IMG/VR virus record: IMGVR_UViG_3300029267_004155
Source: a virus
Lineage: Duplodnaviria > Caudoviricetes
Length of the DNA stretch: 64,000 nucleotides
Reading direction: 5' to 3' (one strand)
Positions 1-17,600 of this stretch are shown here, one piece after another (within the stretch, counting starts at the first letter, position 1; every line of letters starts with the position of its first letter). The notes under the pieces were generated by a model. That model was not told where the DNA came from. It saw only the letters and a list, made by a program, of their open reading frames with translations, and did no database searches. Position numbers and translations under genes: made by a program.

Positions 1-31
1 GTCGGAGGTTCGATTCCTCCTGGGCCGACCA
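1..31 (+). tRNA. 3' part of a tRNA (cut by window edge)
   Basis: T-arm GGAGG-TTCGATT-CCTCC, acceptor strand and CCA; anticodon lies outside the window. Confidence 0.8.
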
Positions 32-45
32 ACAATTGAATATGT

Positions 46-120
46 GTCCCCATCGTCTAGCGGCCAGGATGCGAGGCCCTCAACCTCGTGACGCCGGTTC
101 GAGTCCGGCTGGGGATGCCA
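46..120 (+). tRNA. tRNA-Glu(CTC)
   Basis: Cloverleaf; anticodon arm CGAGG-CCCTCAA-CCTCG (C at position 33); CCA. Confidence 0.9.
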
Positions 121-232
121 GGATTGAGGGCTGCAATATGGCCGGAAAGCAAGTCGCGGGCTTTGCCGAGTTCCAAGACGCGCAGAAGCGGGTAGACGGC
201 AGTCCTGGGGGAGCGGCAAACTCCCCCGAACT

Positions 233-309
233 CGGGATGTGGCTCAGTCTGGTAGAGCGTCCGGCTGGGGGCCGGAAGGTCGCAGGTTCGATTCCTGCCA
301 TCCCGACCA
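233..309 (+). tRNA. tRNA-Pro(GGG)
   Basis: TCCGG-CTGGGGG-CCGGA; CGGGATG acceptor; CCA. Confidence 0.95.
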
Positions 310-319
310 TAGACTTGAG

Positions 320-398
320 AGCGGGGTGAATGTCGATTTGGTAAGACGCCAGGCTCATAACCTGGAGCATGTGGGTTCAACTCCCACCCCCGCCACCA
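320..398 (+). tRNA. tRNA-Met(CAT), possibly initiator-like
   Basis: CCAGG-CTCATAA-CCTGG; A1:C72 mismatch; CCA. Confidence 0.85.
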
Positions 399-463
399 AT
401 ATCGGGACGTGACGAGCGGTTTGACTCCGTCGCCTGAAGCGTGAATGGGCAAGCGTCCCACTT

Positions 464-538
464 GGCCCCATCGTCTAGTGGCAAGGACGTCGGGTTTTCA
501 TCCCGGAGACGGGGGTTCGATTCCCCCTGGGGCTACCA
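464..538 (+). tRNA. tRNA-Glu(TTC)
   Basis: TCGGG-TTTTCAT-CCCGG; CCA. Confidence 0.93.
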
Positions 539-546
539 GTTTTAGA

Positions 547-618
547 TGGCCCGTAGCTCAGCGGTAGAGCATGCGACTCATAATTGCGGGGTCCTCGGTT
601 CAATCCCGAGCGGGCCAA
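547..618 (+). tRNA. tRNA(CAT), probably Ile2 (lysidine type)
   Basis: TGCGA-CTCATAA-TTGCG resembles bacterial tRNA-Ile2; no encoded CCA. Confidence 0.8.
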
Positions 619-627
619 CTAGTTTTT

Positions 628-780
628 TGTTGCGATGATGGCCGGTACCGGCGAGGGAAAGTCATCAGATGGGCGCCAACCGGGTATTGCTCGGAAGAAG
701 GCACTGTCGGAAATCGGTGGTGGGGTGACGTCCGAAGCCGCCGTTCGCCGACGCCCGTTCCGTCTGGCGGCGGCCGCGAC
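628..780 (+). ncRNA. putative structured RNA, family unknown
   Basis: Nested complementary blocks GTTGC/GCGAC, GGCCG/CGGCC, CAGATGG/CCGTCTG between two tRNAs. Confidence 0.35.
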
Positions 781-787
781 ATCTTAT

Positions 788-864
788 CGGGATGTGGCTC
801 AGTCTGGTAGAGCGCCTCGTTCGGGGCGAGGAAGCCGGAGGTTCAAATCCTCTCATCCCGACCA
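788..864 (+). tRNA. tRNA-Pro(CGG)
   Basis: CCTCG-TTCGGGG-CGAGG; CCA. Confidence 0.95.
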
Positions 865-869
865 GTTTT

Positions 870-946
870 CGGGCGGTGGCGCAGTTTGGAAGCGCGCGGC
901 GTTTGGGGCGCTGAGGTCGCCGGTTCGAGCCCGGCCCGCCCGACCA
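870..946 (+). tRNA. tRNA-Pro(TGG)
   Basis: CGGCG-TTTGGGG-CGCTG; CCA. Confidence 0.95.
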
Positions 947-1126
947 GTCTCGGGATGTGTCCAGACGTGGAGAAACTGGACCGCAAAAACAAAAAACTCT
1001 CGCAGTAACGAGACCCGAAAGGGATAGGAAGTGAGGAAACTGCGTCAACAACACTCGGCCTCCGTAGCTCTGGGCGCTTACACCTACGGACCTTTTCGCA
1101 GGCAGGAAGATGGAGGAAGACGATTG

Positions 1127-2014
1127 ATGGACCTGATAGTGGAAACCGACATCGGGCACGATCCCGACGACTACTTCACGCTGTGCCACCTGCACGCCGC
1201 GGGTGTCAGGATCAGGGCGATCCTCGTCTCTCCCGGACACCGGTACCAGGTCGCCATCGCGAGGGCCTTCTGCGCGGAGGTCGGCCTGGATGTCCCTGTC
1301 GGGATCGCGAAGGAGACGAGCGTCGTCAAGACCGGAGGGACGTCGTTCCACATGGCGCTCCTGAGGAAGATGGGACATCCGACCGAGGCGGACCCCGACG
1401 GCTTCGGCCACGAGCTTCTGGGCGGGGTTCTCGAGGACCATCCGGACAGCGACGTCTTCATCTGCGGGCCGGTGAAGAACGTGGGCCGCTACATGATCGA
1501 GCATCCGGAGAGGGAGTTCGGGCGGGTCACGATGCAGGGTGGCTTTCTGGGATACGACCTTCATGGCCATGACGTCGAGAGGCTTCCCAAGTTCAAGGGC
1601 AAGGTGGCCGTGCCTACCTTCAACTTGAACGGGTCGAAGGACGAGGGCTTGTTCCTGGCGTCGCGGGCGAAGGTCGGGGACCTGAGGTTCGTCGGCAAGA
1701 ACGTCTGTCACACGATCCTGTACGACAGGGCGAGGCACGAGTGGATGAGGCGCAGGAAGCCTTCCTGCCGGGCGATGGAGCTGTTCATGGAAGGCATGGA
1801 CCTCTATCTCTACGGGAAGAGGCACCGGGAGAAGAAGTTCCACGACCCGACCGCTGCCGTGTGCCATCTGCATCCCGAGATCGGGACCTGGGTTGGCGGA
1901 AGGTTGTACCGGGAGGGAGGCTGGTGGGGGACGAAGGTCGAGGAGGGGACGAACACCAGGGTCTTGGCCGATGTTGACCGGGAGGGGCTTTGGGACTTTA
2001 TCAGAGGGTGTTAG
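1127..2014 (+). CDS. inosine/uridine-preferring nucleoside hydrolase family protein
   Basis: ETDIGHDPDD Asp cluster, CGPVKN, TFN and FHDP motifs; GGAGG RBS before ATG 1127. Confidence 0.8.
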   Translation: MDLIVETDIGHDPDDYFTLCHLHAAGVRIRAILVSPGHRYQVAIARAFCAEVGLDVPVGIAKETSVVKTGGTSFHMALLRKMGHPTEADPDGFGHELLGGVLEDHPDSDVFICGPVKNVGRYMIEHPEREFGRVTMQGGFLGYDLHGHDVERLPKFKGKVAVPTFNLNGSKDEGLFLASRAKVGDLRFVGKNVCHTILYDRARHEWMRRRKPSCRAMELFMEGMDLYLYGKRHREKKFHDPTAAVCHLHPEIGTWVGGRLYREGGWWGTKVEEGTNTRVLADVDREGLWDFIRGC

Positions 2015-2033
2015 GGCCCGTCCGGCCATGGAT

Positions 2034-2107
2034 TGCCCCGTGGTGTAATGGCAGCACAAGTGTCTTTGGAGCACTCGGTTCTGGTTCGAGTCCAGGCGGG
2101 GCAGCCA
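2034..2107 (+). tRNA. tRNA-Gln(TTG)
   Basis: AGTGT-CTTTGGA-GCACT; CCA. Confidence 0.93.
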
Positions 2108-2169
2108 TCTCCTGGGCGCGGGCAGGCCGGGGCCGGCCTCGATCCCCGTCGGAAAAACCGAGAGGTCGC

Positions 2170-2198
2170 TTGGCAAATTCGGGCGAGCGGCGTATAAT
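2170..2198 (+). promoter_or_regulatory. sigma70-like promoter of the attenuated tRNA operon
   Basis: TTGGCA-N17-TATAAT; -10 belongs to the GGCGTATAAT class. Confidence 0.75.
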
Positions 2199-2222
2199 AA
2201 GGCAACGAAAGGCAACTACGTC

Positions 2223-2306
2223 ATGCTGACGGGAACCACAACGAAAGACAATACCTGGGGCGGCAAGCCCGCCCACGGGGGTCTTTCGCTTGGAGTTCAA
2301 GCGTAG
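2223..2306 (+). CDS. putative attenuator leader peptide MLTGTTTKDNTWGGKPAHGGLSLGVQA (27 aa)
   Basis: GAAAGG RBS-like at 2207-2212; ORF overlaps mutually exclusive helices and ends upstream of a terminator. Confidence 0.65.
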   Translation: MLTGTTTKDNTWGGKPAHGGLSLGVQA

Positions 2307-2327
2307 ACGGTGGCGAGCGCGCTGTGA

Positions 2328-2363
2328 GACCCCCGGCCCGAAAGGGCGCGGGGGTTTTTCTTT
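2328..2363 (+). terminator. intrinsic terminator (attenuator) abutting tRNA-Gly
   Basis: GACCCCCGGCCC-GAAA-GGGCGCGGGGGTT followed by TTTCTTT. Confidence 0.85.
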
Positions 2364-2439
2364 GCGGCAGTAGCTCAGTCGGAAGAGCACCTGCTTGCCA
2401 AGCAGGAGGCCACGGGTTCGAGCCCCGTCTGTCGCACCA
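2364..2439 (+). tRNA. tRNA-Gly(GCC)
   Basis: CCTGC-TTGCCAA-GCAGG; CCA. Confidence 0.95.
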
Positions 2440-2450
2440 GGTTTCATGAT

Positions 2451-2527
2451 AGGTCCGTAGCTCAATCGGCTAGAGCACCGGTCTCCAAAACCGGCGGTTC
2501 TCGGTTCGACCCCGAGCGGGCCTGCCA
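2451..2527 (+). tRNA. tRNA-Trp(CCA)
   Basis: CCGGT-CTCCAAA-ACCGG; CCA. Confidence 0.95.
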
Positions 2528-2531
2528 AGAA

Positions 2532-2607
2532 CGGCTCGTAGCTCAGTTGGTAGAGCATCCGCCTTTTAAGCGGAACGCCGAGGGTTCGAGTCCCTCCGAG
2601 CCGACCA
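2532..2607 (+). tRNA. tRNA-Lys(TTT)
   Basis: TCCGC-CTTTTAA-GCGGA; CCA. Confidence 0.95.
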
Positions 2608-2621
2608 GAAATTCGGAGCGA

Positions 2622-2658
2622 GTGGAAAACCTTGCTCGTTCGGCAATGTAGGGTGGAG
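2622..2658 (+). promoter_or_regulatory. repeated bipartite motif, copy 1 (putative phage promoter)
   Basis: GTGGAAAA-N12-GGCAATGTAGGGTGGAG. Confidence 0.7.
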
Positions 2659-2688
2659 ACGAGGTTCAACAGAAGGAGATGTGATCGA

Positions 2689-2762
2689 GGTTCCGTAGCT
2701 TAGAGGTAGAGCGGGCGGCTCGGACCGCGTGGCCGCAGGTTCGAGCCCTGCCGGGACCTCCA
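2689..2762 (+). tRNA. atypical tRNA-like gene (6-nt anticodon loop)
   Basis: Intact acceptor, D and T arms plus CCA; anticodon arm GCGG-CTCGGA-CCGC. Confidence 0.65.
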
Positions 2763-2783
2763 ACTCGACAGGAGAGTCTATTC

Positions 2784-2860
2784 GCACCCGTAGCTCAGTT
2801 GGCTAGAGCGGCTGACTCTTAATCAGCAGGTTCTCGGTTCGAACCCGAGCGGGTGTGCCA
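2784..2860 (+). tRNA. tRNA-Lys(CTT)
   Basis: GCTGA-CTCTTAA-TCAGC; CCA. Confidence 0.95.
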
Positions 2861-2871
2861 ACAATTCAGAT

Positions 2872-2967
2872 GCCGATGTGGTGTAATGGTAGCACACCGG
2901 GTAAACCGGAGGTTTTCCTCGATCAGCGCGCGTAGTCGAGGCGGTTCAAGTCCAGACATCGGCTCCA
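2872..2967 (+). tRNA. atypical Thr-like tRNA (shrunken anticodon loop, inserted hairpin)
   Basis: GCCGATG/CATCGGC acceptor plus TCCA; CCGG-GTAAA-CCGG; extra CCTCGA...TCGAGG hairpin before the T loop. Confidence 0.6.
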
Positions 2968-3085
2968 ACAACTTAGGCGACACCTGCCTGTCCGAAGAAG
3001 GTCCGGCGACGAGCGGGGACGAACCCGTGGACGACCAGGCTGGAGGAGAAGTGGTGTGACTCGGGTGAGAGCAGGCCCGCATTAA

Positions 3086-3162
3086 GCCCGGATAGCTCAG
3101 TGGCTAAGAGCAGCCGATTCGTAATCGGCAGGTCGAGGGTTCGAGTCCCTCTCTGGGCTCCA
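3086..3162 (+). tRNA. tRNA-Thr(CGT)
   Basis: GCCGA-TTCGTAA-TCGGC; CCA. Confidence 0.95.
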
Positions 3163-3165
3163 GAC

Positions 3166-3239
3166 TCCCCCATGGTGTAATGGTAGCACGTAGGACTGTT
3201 AATCCTTTGGTCCTGGTTCGAGTCCAGGTGGGGGAACCA
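3166..3239 (+). tRNA. tRNA-Asn(GTT)
   Basis: AGGA-CTGTTAA-TCCT; CCA. Confidence 0.93.
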
Positions 3240-3289
3240 ACTCAAGCCGGGTCGACGAGATCGGCCGTCAGGGAAAAGGAGGCAGGGAC

Positions 3290-4732
3290 ATGAAGAGGGA
3301 AGAGACGATTCGGAAGCTGTACGAGTGCGTTCAGACGCGTCCGCGTCCGGAGGATGTTGCCGAGGTCGTGCTGGAGGCATTGCTTCCGCGGCTGTCGCTG
3401 GCCCAGAGGAACGTCTTGAAGCAGGCGACCAGGATCTCGACGAGGAGCCACCTCCTGGGCTACTCGTCCATGGCCGCGGACTTCCATCGCCCGACGGGCA
3501 TGGAGAAGCCGGTCAAGGTGGCGTCCGAGCTCTTCTCCGTTCCGATGCTGTCGGTGGAGGAGTGCCTCGACCCGGAGAGGGTGGAGGTCTTCGTCCAGGG
3601 CGTGTCGTCGGCCATCGGCAAGAGCTACGGGCAGTCCGACTTCCTGAAGCACCGGATGAACCGGGAGCAGCGGGCGCAGGCGGGCCTCGACATGGGGCAC
3701 CGCGCCTACAACAAGCGCTTCAGGCTCCTGGGCCGGATGGAGTCCAAGCTCCTGAGGATGGTCCGCGAGCGGAAGAAGTACGTCCTGACCCGGATCGGCA
3801 AGAGCGGCTTCGCCGTGGAGATCGACTTCGACGACTTCTCCGCCGACCTGGGCACGGCCTGCTTCGTGGCGTACATGAGCGCGAGGATGAGCCTTCGGAG
3901 CACCTTCACGAACGACTCCCAGGTTCGGGCCTTCGACGTGGTGGCCAAGATGCTGTACGACCGCCTGACCAAGTCCAACACGGCCAGGTGGGACGTCGTG
4001 GCCGCCGTCTATCCGGTGGACAGGGTCCTGAGGCTCCTGACGGACTACCAGAAGGGCGCCATGCTCGCGAGGGCGTGGGGTCTCCTGGAGGACGCGTGCG
4101 ACCTTCTCACGGAGGTCTGGGAGGGTTCCGGCGGCGGCATCGACCTGGAGAGGATGGTGGTGCGGCGCGGGTGCGACTCGTCGACGTGGAACCAGTCGGC
4201 CGGCGGGTGGAACAAGGCCCGGGACCACTGGGTGTCGATGCTTCACGCCATGGGCATGGGCTCCATGCTTGAGGCCCTGTGCCCGGGCAAGGTCATGAGG
4301 CTGATGGCGGCGGACGTGGTCCGTTGGCACCTGGCCTCGGGCGGCGACGTCCATCCGGGGACCAAGGTGTGGGCTGAGCTTCCGTACCCGTGGGACGTCG
4401 TCGCGGGCAAGGAGCGGTGCACGAAGGAGATGGTGGTGGCCGCGTGCGAGAGGCACGGCGTCGAGCCGGCGTCCTGGGTCGGGCCGAGGAGGCGTGCCCG
4501 GGCCGTGGAGTTCACGCCGACCCCCGAGCTGGTGCACGGCGTCGCCGTGTCGAGCCCGGGACTGGCTCTCGCCCTGCGGAGGGCCGGGGTCTTCTCGGCC
4601 AAGGCCCTCAGGGCCGAGCATCTCCCGGCCGGCGGCTTCCATGTCGACAGGGACGGCGACGGCTTCGCGCTCGGGGCGACCGACGCGAATTCTCACGGGT
4701 CGGGCCGGAAGGTCCGGGCCGCGGGCGTATAG
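3290..4732 (+). CDS. hypothetical protein (480 aa)
   Basis: AGGAGG RBS, GC3-biased codon use. Confidence 0.85.
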   Translation: MKREETIRKLYECVQTRPRPEDVAEVVLEALLPRLSLAQRNVLKQATRISTRSHLLGYSSMAADFHRPTGMEKPVKVASELFSVPMLSVEECLDPERVEVFVQGVSSAIGKSYGQSDFLKHRMNREQRAQAGLDMGHRAYNKRFRLLGRMESKLLRMVRERKKYVLTRIGKSGFAVEIDFDDFSADLGTACFVAYMSARMSLRSTFTNDSQVRAFDVVAKMLYDRLTKSNTARWDVVAAVYPVDRVLRLLTDYQKGAMLARAWGLLEDACDLLTEVWEGSGGGIDLERMVVRRGCDSSTWNQSAGGWNKARDHWVSMLHAMGMGSMLEALCPGKVMRLMAADVVRWHLASGGDVHPGTKVWAELPYPWDVVAGKERCTKEMVVAACERHGVEPASWVGPRRRARAVEFTPTPELVHGVAVSSPGLALALRRAGVFSAKALRAEHLPAGGFHVDRDGDGFALGATDANSHGSGRKVRAAGV

Positions 4733-4745
4733 TAGGAGTGGATGC

Positions 4746-4822
4746 AGGTGTGTAGCTCAGTGGTAGAGCGTCCCGGCTCTTTTTCCGGGAGGACGCAGGT
4801 TCGAGCCCTGCCTCACCTGCCA
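4746..4822 (+). tRNA. atypical tRNA-like gene, copy A (8-nt pyrimidine anticodon loop)
   Basis: Normal D/T arms and CCA; TCCCGG-CTCTTTTT-CCGGGA. Confidence 0.7.
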
Positions 4823-4829
4823 ATCTTGT

Positions 4830-4907
4830 CTCGACGTAGCTCAGTGGTAGAGCGTCCCGGCTCTTTTTCCGGGAGGACGCAGGTTCGAGCCCTGTCGTTC
4901 GAGGCCA
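4830..4907 (+). tRNA. atypical tRNA-like gene, copy B
   Basis: 59-bp core identical to copy A (4752-4810 = 4836-4894); different, bulged acceptor stem; CCA. Confidence 0.65.
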
Positions 4908-5015
4908 TTTGGTTTTCGACCCCTGTCGGTTCGACTCCGACGTCCGGCTCCTATACTAGTTGCACGGGAGGCGGCCACACCGGTTGGAAGGGTGGGCCCG
5001 GGGGTCTTTCTTGAC

Positions 5016-5085
5016 GTCCCCGGCTCAATGGAGAGCTGGGCACTTGTGGCGCCCAGACGCCAGTTCGATTCTGGCAGGGGCTCCA
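5016..5085 (+). pseudogene. degenerate tRNA, possibly Thr(TGT)-like
   Basis: GCTC/GAGC D arm, GCCAG-TTCGATT-CTGGC T arm, TCCA end; imperfect acceptor and anticodon stems. Confidence 0.5.
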
Positions 5086-5258
5086 TCCTCCGTTCCGCGT
5101 CCCTGGTCCGAGCCCGAGGGCAGGCCGCGTCTTTCTTCTCCTCCTTGGCGGCGTATAATCCCATGACGAATCATGGAGGGCGCTGACGACGTAGAATGGG
5201 ATGGAGAGCTTTGCGGACTGGTGGCGGTAGCCAGAGAGCGAGAACAAGGAGATGCGAG

Positions 5259-5474
5259 ATGATCTATCGGGGCAAATGGTTCACGGTGAGGGTCGAGGAG
5301 CTGGCGGAGGTTGGCGTCTCGACGTCGCAGGGGAACAAGGGTGAGGTCGTGCGCGGGCTGCACGTGACGCACAGGTCGGGGACGCAGAACCGGACGTCTT
5401 ACGCCGACGAGGCGGAGCTCATGAGGGACTACGAGGGGCTCGCCGCGGCCATGGAGAAGGTGGACGACAAGTAG
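5259..5474 (+). CDS. hypothetical protein
   Basis: AAGGAG RBS. Confidence 0.65.
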   Translation: MIYRGKWFTVRVEELAEVGVSTSQGNKGEVVRGLHVTHRSGTQNRTSYADEAELMRDYEGLAAAMEKVDDK

Positions 5475-5486
5475 GAGGGGAGAGCC

Positions 5487-6125
5487 ATGTTCGACGGAGT
5501 CAAGCTGTCGAAGAAGTTCCTGTCCAGGCGAGACACGTTCTTCGTGTCGCCGTCCTGGTTCGGCTGTGGGCACTGGGCGGTCCGGAGGGAGATGCTTCTT
5601 TCCCCGGACCTTTCCGGCCTGGGAGCTGGCGGGGTGGAGCTGACGACGGGCGAGATTGCCACGAAGCTCGGCCTCGAGCCTTACAGGGCGCAGTGGCATT
5701 GGAGGGAGGACGACATGTTCGAGGCCATGCTCTGCCCGGAGCCGGACGGTGCCGAGAGGTTCCGCCGGCAGGAGTGGGTGAAGGTGGGCTGCGACTCGGG
5801 TCGGAATGTCGACTCGGTCCTGTTCCAGGGGGATGACTCGGGGACCCCGTGCTTCATCGACAGGGACTTCGTCCAGACGTTCGACGTCGACGAGCTCGTG
5901 ATGGGCGCCGGCGGGAAGGTCGCGATGCACGATCCGGAAAGGCGCGTCGTCATCGCCAGGAGGGTCGGGGACCTTCCGCGCGTGATGGTGACGAAGGATC
6001 GGGTCATCCGGGAGGAGGACCTGATGGCGGCGGTCCGGGACGCGTGCGCCGAAGCGAAGCTCGATCCGGGTGTCGGTGGCCAGCTCTCGTATGCGATCGG
6101 CAGGAGGATAGGGGTGGCGGTGTGA
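5487..6125 (+). CDS. hypothetical protein
   Basis: GGAGG RBS, codon bias. Confidence 0.8.
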   Translation: MFDGVKLSKKFLSRRDTFFVSPSWFGCGHWAVRREMLLSPDLSGLGAGGVELTTGEIATKLGLEPYRAQWHWREDDMFEAMLCPEPDGAERFRRQEWVKVGCDSGRNVDSVLFQGDDSGTPCFIDRDFVQTFDVDELVMGAGGKVAMHDPERRVVIARRVGDLPRVMVTKDRVIREEDLMAAVRDACAEAKLDPGVGGQLSYAIGRRIGVAV

Positions 6126-17420: not shown

Positions 17421-17600
17421 GCTTTATCTCGCCCTGGGGCGCTATCTGGTGGTGAAAAGGGCGGAAGGTGGAGAAGTCCGGACTTTCAAGCGCCCCGACG
17501 GGCGTATAATGGCAGTGAGGTGGTGTCCGGACCCGAAGGCGGGCGACCGACCCACCCTGGGGCAGTTTTGCCAGGCCTACGGGCTGGAGCGGGAGAGGTG

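Follow-up and report, generated by a model that had tools for sequence, protein, structure and literature searches.

The leaders of the classical amino-acid operons (trpL, hisL, leuL, thrL, pheL and the leader of ilvGMEDA) share one architecture: a promoter is followed by a short leader with regulatory codons, by RNA segments that pair as helices 1:2, 2:3 or 3:4, and by a terminator. Termination is the default in these attenuators, and a stalled ribosome frees the antiterminator. The same arrangement is recognizable on the + strand between positions 2170 and 2363 of the 64,000-nucleotide (nt) stretch of viral DNA analysed here (Caudoviricetes; IMG/VR record IMGVR_UViG_3300029267_004155), which is referred to as the window at its full length. 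This element, unit 3 in what follows, stands in front of a block of transfer RNA (tRNA) genes at 2364-3239. Computational analysis makes it likely that 2170-2363 is a ribosome-mediated leader-peptide transcription attenuator gating that block, and on this model the phage probably makes the block 3 tRNAs only when ribosomes are short of them.

The comparison with described systems reveals differences as well as likenesses. Whereas the attenuators of amino-acid operons control biosynthetic enzymes, the target here would be tRNAs, so that the product itself would relieve the stall and provide direct feedback. The leader of ilvGMEDA, with its Ile, Val and Leu codons, is likewise multivalent; amino-acid operon leaders, however, carry a run of one or a few codons, whereas the leaders described here contain a mixed list of up to ~13 codon families. 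The present setting is also viral, with several retuned cassettes per genome and no match to an Rfam leader. The pheM leader attenuator of Escherichia coli pheST, the operon for phenylalanyl-tRNA synthetase, senses the supply of charged tRNA and controls a component of the translation apparatus. Unlike unit 3, pheM is cellular, has a synthetase as its target and responds to Phe only.

T-box riboswitches also tie tRNA status to terminator readthrough via an antiterminator helix, but they bind uncharged tRNA by a specifier codon and the T-box sequence and involve no translation, whereas the element considered here has an open reading frame (ORF) of many codons. Neither the T-box family (RF00230) nor the curated leader families of Rfam (Thr, Trp, His, Leu and others) gave a match at E <= 1 in a cmscan of positions 1-6000, which at this threshold returned tRNA and weak chance matches only and nothing within 2170-2363. 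The phage lambda PR'-tR' unit with Q antitermination (6S RNA) and the put RNAs of HK022 are similar in combining a strong promoter, a terminator within ~200 nt and a long phage transcription unit; in contrast to unit 3, they need a protein or a polymerase-modifying RNA and have neither a codon relation to downstream genes nor a 2:3 helix. In a full-text literature search, no account of tRNA genes controlled by leader-peptide attenuation came up, whether for phages or for other organisms; this agrees with the first-pass annotation of this DNA, although such an absence is no proof. The kind of control would be a known one, namely leader-peptide attenuation; what would be new is that tRNA genes are the regulated genes, that the product feeds back directly, that the leaders are highly multivalent 'checklists' and that the setting is viral.

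Unit 3 begins with a strong sigma-70-type promoter, TTGGCA (2170-2175) and TATAAT (2193-2198) separated by 17 nt, which matches the consensus at 11 of 12 positions and is the sole promoter-like site within 6 kilobases (kb) in a consensus scan. Its -10 region is the recurrent GGCGTATAAT box of this phage. A second promoter-like motif at 2622, raised in the first-pass annotation as a possible independent driver of the distal tRNAs, falls below the threshold of that scan. The first AUG of the predicted transcript opens an ORF of 27 codons (2223-2306) encoding MLTGTTTKDNTWGGKPAHGGLSLGVQA, with a weak Shine-Dalgarno (SD)-like sequence, GAAAGG (2207-2212), 10 nt ahead of the ATG at 2223. Promoter, ORF and GAAAGG are all located where they had initially been placed. 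Codons 3-15 (2229-2267), the presumptive sensor codons, read ACG GGA ACC ACA ACG AAA GAC AAT ACC TGG GGC GGC AAG, and the stop codon (2304-2306) lies 21 nt ahead of the terminator stem.

The RNA downstream of the start codon can adopt the alternative helices of an attenuator. Helix 1:2, originally drawn as 2242-2249/2281-2288, is real and forms the heart of a longer hairpin (2219-2309, -43.9 kcal/mol), which belongs to the minimum-energy fold and sequesters the antiterminator strand; within it, the 1:2 core extends over 2239-2249/2281-2292 and is topped by an apical GC hairpin (2254-2263/2269-2279). Segment 2, the antiterminator strand CGGGGGTCT(T) at 2276-2285, is a copy of the terminator 3' arm, and a pattern search for that arm also matches here. 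Helix 2:3 is a perfect duplex of 9 base pairs (bp), exactly as first noticed, between CGGGGGTCT (2276-2284) and AGACCCCCG (2327-2335); its energy of -25.0 kcal/mol compares with -18.5 +/- 2.7 kcal/mol for dinucleotide shuffles and beats 98% of them (p = 0.018). Segment 3 (2326-2339), the 5' arm of the terminator, is common to antiterminator and terminator, and the other arm, GGGCGCGGGGG on the 3' side, makes up segment 4 (2344-2363) together with the U-tract TTTTTCTTT. The predicted intrinsic terminator abutting tRNA-Gly was recovered as a hairpin of -25 kcal/mol with a GC stem at 2330-2339/2344-2354, followed by the U-tract to 2363 and by tRNA-Gly(GCC) from 2364; a simple terminator scan missed it owing to a one-base bulge. 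As a whole, the leader is more stable than its shuffles (z = -4.1).

Folds of the growing transcript have helix 1:2 present by 2290 and kept to 2330. When 2229-2260 is masked and segment 4 is absent, helix 2:3 forms. With ribosomes stalled at codons 3-14, segment 3 pairs upstream with a probability of 0.85-0.92; when the ribosome is at codons 16-25, this probability is 0.48-0.66. In the full-length leader the terminator state is strongly favoured, at -75.8 kcal/mol. The parts and the alternative helices are thus observed in silico, and from them we infer translation of the ORF, ribosome stalling and the switch itself.

According to the proposed mechanism, transcription would start near 2205 and a ribosome would load at the AUG at 2223 with RNA polymerase not yet past the leader. 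Fast reading of the Thr (ACG), Lys (AAA/AAG), Asn (AAT), Trp (UGG) and Gly (GGC) codons would take the ribosome to the stop at 2304-2306; segment 2 would then be covered or re-paired with segment 1, the 3:4 terminator would form, and a transcript of ~160 nt would be released without the tRNAs being made. Scarcity of charged tRNA for any of the sensor codons would stall the ribosome at codons 3-14 and mask segment 1, so that segments 2 (2276-2285) and 3 (2326-2335) could pair ahead of the synthesis of segment 4. Helix 2:3 would block the terminator, polymerase would enter the tRNA genes, and RNase P cleavage at 2363/2364 would remove the leader. As more phage tRNA builds up and becomes charged, stalling would end and termination return, closing a loop of negative feedback.

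Unit 3 is one of three promoter-short ORF-terminator cassettes in this high-GC phage of ~298 kb, each of which is placed before a different tRNA block. The other two are found in locus L002, which adds 6.7 kb upstream of the window (L002 coordinate = window coordinate + 6711). Unit 1 occupies L002 2154-2399, with its promoter at 2154-2183, its ORF at 2252-2341 and its terminator extending to ~2399. Unit 2 occupies L002 5836-6018, ~700-880 nt before the window start, with a -10 box at 5855-5864, an ORF at 5880-5960 and a terminator extending to ~6018. The promoter form TTGGCAA...GGC/TGTATAAT is common to the three units, and the terminator 13-mer CGGGGGTTTTTCT is confined, within ~70 kb, to the terminators of the three units (a single copy in the 64-kb window). 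Each cassette ORF holds a copy of the terminator 3'-arm core CGGGG(G/A)T, and 18-21 nt separate its stop codon from the terminator stem; beyond the shared core, the ORF bodies show no relation to one another. The antiterminator of unit 2 is the strongest in statistical terms, with 13 bp at -35.7 kcal/mol against -15.2 +/- 2.7 kcal/mol (0 of 1000 shuffles), and in the masking simulation a ribosome near the stop codon blocks it, which is the textbook behaviour.

The codons of the leaders point to the tRNAs behind them. Decodable codons were set for each block by standard wobble rules, and the null consisted of random windows from 42 genes of the 64-kb window with high GC content at third codon positions (GC3). 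The first-pass annotation had noted that twelve of codons 3-15 of leader 3 specify Thr, Gly, Lys, Asn or Trp, the amino acids of the downstream tRNAs. This count (12/13, background 0.22) was confirmed, and none of 200,000 random gene windows matches it, which makes leader 3 the most extreme of the leaders at amino-acid level. At the stricter codon-anticodon level 8 of the 13 are cognate (ACG twice, AAA, AAT, TGG, GGC twice and AAG). Across whole ORFs, units 1-3 have 18/28, 14/25 and 9/26 codons cognate to their own blocks where 8.7, 11.3 and 4.6 would be expected; cross-block counts are 4-7, and the leader-by-block contingency test yields p = 0.0026.

The signal is concentrated where an attenuator would have it. 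The sensor region was defined as the codons at which a stalled ribosome (A-site -15 to +12 nt) leaves segment 2 uncovered, which in unit 3 are codons 2-14. Cognate codons make up 13/19, 10/14 and 7/13 of this region in units 1-3 (p = 9e-4, 0.044 and 0.0035; Fisher combined 2e-5), and non-sensor codons are at background level (5/9, 4/11 and 2/13). Both other frames are also at background in the three units, with 3/26 and 4/26 in unit 3. The proportion of tRNAs that have at least one cognate leader codon is 13/13 in unit 1 (0 of 300,000 random windows), 13/15 in unit 2 and 6/7 in unit 3, whose leader covers all six canonical tRNAs of its block and lacks a codon only for the aberrant 96-nt 'Ser-GGA' gene. 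The enrichment in cognate codons, like the helices a result obtained in silico, is specific to frame, own block and ORF position, and judging by sequence each cassette appears to be retuned to its own tRNA block.

Comparable leaders are present in phages of other lineages. A survey of 54 loci in viral_contigs and metagenome_contigs with homologues of the nucleoside-hydrolase-like protein encoded within the array of the window phage returned one positive, L015, a 424-kb viral contig of an uncultured AT-rich jumbo phage (34% GC) with a six-tRNA cluster. Its leader comprises a promoter (TTTACA-17-TATATT), an apparently leaderless ORF encoding MKIFFQQPQPQQPRNITWRGLLLK, a 1:2 hairpin, an antiterminator copy and a terminator 17 nt before the first tRNA. 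ORF codons 6-14 are CAA CAG CCG CAA CCA CAA CAA CCC AGG, nine consecutive codons that are all cognate and that name all six tRNAs of the cluster: Gln-TTG, Gln-CTG, Pro-CGG, Pro-TGG, Pro-GGG and Arg-CCT (run p ~6e-10). Here too the antiterminator duplicates the terminator 3' arm (duplex p = 0.001; fold z = -5.0). Single tRNAs of L015 stand directly after coding genes and have no leaders. The design is not universal, as the tRNA clusters of two other surveyed loci, L030 and L048, lack leaders of this kind.

The phiCbK-like Caulobacter phages supply a further case. In phiCbK, annotated terminators stand directly before tRNA blocks. Here gp335 has 23 of 44 codons cognate to its own block (p = 4e-5) and covers 10/10 tRNAs, and the Phe/Val/Ile/Gln unit covers 9/9; the Glu/Asp unit, with 3/19 cognate codons, is not significant. 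The first-pass annotation had suggested looking in related phages for a conserved small ORF and for codons that track the tRNA set. The leader of the Phe/Val/Ile/Gln unit, reading MSK(T/S)YRQFV(R)QIQ..., is kept with synonymous changes in phiCbK, CcrBL10 and BL47, which represent three genera, and CcrBL10 and BL47 carry Arg and Asn tRNAs matching its R and N codons. Attenuation is not mentioned in the phiCbK genome paper, although both terminators and tRNAs are predicted there (PMC3556154). The window phage (65% GC, from sediment and seawater) belongs to a lineage other than those of L015 and the phiCbK-like phages, and the leaders share no sequence similarity. The unit 3 mRNA would have a 5' untranslated region, whereas the leaders of L015 and phiCbK are apparently leaderless.

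In the Caulobacter phages an additional CCA-ending element follows the leader terminator and precedes the first annotated tRNA, at ~13750-13835 in L018 (phiCbK), ~1770-1855 in L067 and ~2760-2845 in L068. It is conserved and displays a 7-bp acceptor stem, a T arm, a long variable arm and the anticodon loop CTGTAAA (Tyr-GTA). This candidate class-II tRNA-Tyr-like element is called by neither ARAGORN nor Rfam; codon 5 of the leader specifies Tyr. The 2012 genome paper on phiCbK states that no Tyr tRNA is present (PMC3556154).

Attenuation is the best explanation of these observations because of the promoter-terminator-tRNA architecture, the helix that is alternative to the terminator arm, and a frame-, block- and position-specific codon match that is seen again in unrelated phages. 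The original proposal of a trp/his-type attenuator whose codons match the tRNAs behind the terminator is supported by the fold series, the masking simulations, the codon statistics and the recurrence. Several points weigh against it. GAAAGG at a 10-nt spacing is weak next to the AGGAG(G) found 5-8 nt before real genes of this phage that have the same promoter motif, and the SD sequences of units 1 and 2 are likewise weak or oddly spaced. At equilibrium, the fold keeps the terminator even under the ribosome mask (probability >= 0.5). Helix 2:3 forms under the mask before segment 4 exists, but in the full-length leader the terminator remains favoured. Because masking does not flip the terminator in the full-length fold, a thermodynamic switch was dropped, and unit 3 must decide kinetically, in the manner of trp. 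Segment 2 is also left uncovered when a ribosome reaches the stop codon of unit 3, so that termination must depend on helix 1:2 re-forming.

The remaining reservations concern the statistics and the relatives. Taken alone, unit 3 is modest at the strict codon level (whole-ORF p = 0.03-0.04, coverage p = 0.07), because block 3 lacks a cognate tRNA for GGA and for three of the five Thr codons (ACC, ACA, ACC). The p-values are optimistic, as the pattern was noticed before the tests were made. The unit 1 antiterminator (GCGUCCGGG / CCCGGACGC) is no better than shuffles. Finally, no relative of suitable divergence for covariation was found at the unit 3 locus.

Searches of viral_contigs with the 480-amino-acid (aa) protein encoded downstream, the glycosyltransferase, the CobT-like protein and the promoter string retrieved no close relative with the same array, and relatives of the 480-aa protein at 56-63% identity (L005-L008) have no tRNA array upstream. 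A search for the promoter-gap-terminator pattern produced three chance matches, which were without tRNAs and were discarded. The array is identical in copies from three samples, and contigs from four runs show a single variant, with none in the ORF or the helices. This variant, T>C at 2323, lies between leader stop and terminator and comes from one low-depth contig of a 2023 sediment run.

Among the alternatives, the one that survives best is a conditional terminator switched by a phage or host factor, either a Q-, N- or put-like processive antiterminator at work on the promoter-proximal leader or an RNA-binding protein that stabilizes helix 2:3; the ORF would be incidental and the geometry that of lambda PR'-tR' (6S RNA). 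The occurrence of a strong promoter and a strong terminator within ~160 nt, three times and with shared promoter and terminator sequences, would suit such a switch, as would the highly structured leader hairpins and the weak SD sequences. It nevertheless leaves the frame-, own-block- and position-specific enrichment in cognate codons unexplained. It also fails to account for leader bodies that vary between cassettes in step with the tRNA blocks, or for the same codon checklist in unrelated phages with unrelated leaders, and we regard it as rather unlikely. No gene for an antiterminator protein came to light, though no search aimed at one was made.

The cassette could also be a stand-alone small gene, specifying a small RNA (sRNA) of ~160 nt or a 27-residue peptide and ending at a constitutive terminator, with the tRNAs arising from leaky readthrough or upstream transcription. 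Promoter and terminator do delimit a compact and stable RNA, and there is a precedent for an attenuator-derived sRNA acting in trans in rnTrpL of Sinorhizobium (PMC6614838). Motif searches found no further promoter motif within the tRNA blocks, and therefore some readthrough must happen in any case. However, the only nearby promoter would be pointless if a constitutive terminator separated it from the eight tRNA genes, and the 2:3 complementarity and the codon match would be left without a role. As a replacement for attenuation this explanation is unlikely; it could hold in addition to it.

Chance is a very improbable source of the pattern. DNA of 65% GC commonly contains open frames of 26-29 codons, and its GC-rich arms pair readily even with shuffled sequence, as in unit 1; in addition, the codon match was noticed post hoc, and unit 3 is modest by itself. 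Yet the combined Fisher value, the empty tails for unit 1 coverage and unit 3 residues, the frame and block controls, the threefold repetition in the window phage and the recurrence in unrelated phages, including the perfect nine-codon run of L015, all stand against it.

The genes that unit 3 would control were identified by ARAGORN and by Rfam tRNA matches. Block 3 (2364-3239, + strand) consists of Gly-GCC, Trp-CCA, Lys-TTT, an odd tRNA, Lys-CTT, the aberrant 'Ser-GGA', Thr-CGT and Asn-GTT. The odd tRNA (2689-2762, + strand) has a 6-nt anticodon loop, CTCGGA, and aligns with Thr-CGT as though one anticodon base had been deleted. The aberrant 'Ser-GGA' tRNA-like gene (2872-2967, + strand) scores 30.8 bits, barely at the Rfam threshold.

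Block 3 is part of a 9-kb array of 38 tRNA or tRNA-like genes seen in L002. The distal part of block 2 (46-2107, + strand), delineated by ARAGORN and the locus extension, runs from Glu-CTC to Pro-TGG and then Gln-TTG. It encloses the nucleoside-hydrolase-like gene (1031-2014, + strand), which is of the inosine-uridine type with a sub-threshold Pfam match (E = 2e-6). Genes of this type are situated in or beside jumbo-phage tRNA arrays at both 65% and 34% GC, the other examples being L015 10001-10855 and L048 10001-10870. L048 is a 469-kb AT-rich viral-like contig with 17 tRNAs near the hydrolase homologue and an ARAGORN transfer-messenger RNA (tmRNA) gene at 398-807 on the - strand. Block 1 is interrupted by a glycosyltransferase family 2 gene and an HNH endonuclease gene (L002 4159-4824 and 5179-5802).

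The window is contained in a 298,395-bp metagenomic contig, with near-identical copies in several sediment and seawater samples. As this contig has been recovered from several metagenomes, the window is considered part of an uncultured jumbo phage. GC content is 62-68% and GC skew is steadily positive; the encoded proteins include collagen-like tail fibres, an NAD-dependent ligase and a CobT-like protein. BLAST identified no close cultured phage, with matches at the tRNA level only.

The promoter box of unit 3 recurs along the window. The form GGCGTATRRT (GGCGTATA(A/G)T) is present seven times on the + strand, at 2189, 4724, 5150, 14551, 17501, 31541 and 36134, where 0.33 would be expected, and by its sequence the GGCGTATAAT box appears to be a general promoter motif of this phage. 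Before real genes it lies 24-39 nt upstream of the start codon and is accompanied by AGGAG(G) ribosome sites. The box often occurs without a recognizable -35 element. The copy at 4724 is 12 nt before a tRNA-like pair that has no leader, and the one at 17501 precedes a structured GC-rich stretch that is not an obvious gene.

Downstream of block 3, the 480-aa protein belongs to no known family and has more than 1000 homologues in phages and bacteria. Its gene is directly followed by tRNA-like genes with 8-nt anticodon loops ('cttt' twice in the window, where the whole group spans 3290-4907), and such genes also follow relatives of the protein, with cgat, cttc and cttg in L005 7291-8805, L006 10001-11743 and L008 5434-7033. 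Neighbours of these relatives include an RNA ligase, Thg1, NADAR and an RF-1 domain protein. The protein and the tRNA-like genes look like a conserved module, perhaps one for RNA repair or decoding.

The role of phage tRNA arrays is an open question, and codon-usage compensation, host shut-off and escape from tRNA-cleaving defences have all been proposed. As for what the attenuators may respond to, the three units together span almost all amino acids, so general feedback on tRNA supply fits better than a specific reply to Lys-tRNA nucleases; anticodon nucleases such as PrrC, RloC or PARIS, which the first-pass annotation had proposed, are a possible trigger. More broadly, it seems fairly probable that phages of very different lineages use a previously undescribed type of attenuator, a 'tRNA checklist', in which a mini-ORF lists the codons of the downstream tRNAs and the speed of its translation sets their transcription. 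Such control would amount to product feedback that turns on when host tRNAs are depleted, be it by shut-off, codon-usage mismatch or anticodon nucleases. To this picture the window adds a distinct high-GC lineage with three paralogous cassettes that appear retuned. If the model is true, the phage measures the very shortage that is being corrected, namely the decoding speed on codons served by the downstream tRNAs, and tRNA genes gain a feedback control for which no description was found in any organism. The reach of classical attenuation would then include the decoding machinery as well as amino-acid biosynthesis. Annotators would have a rule by which to interpret small ORFs and 'orphan' terminators located within tRNA arrays, and the leaders would represent compact, tunable sensors of individual tRNA pools.

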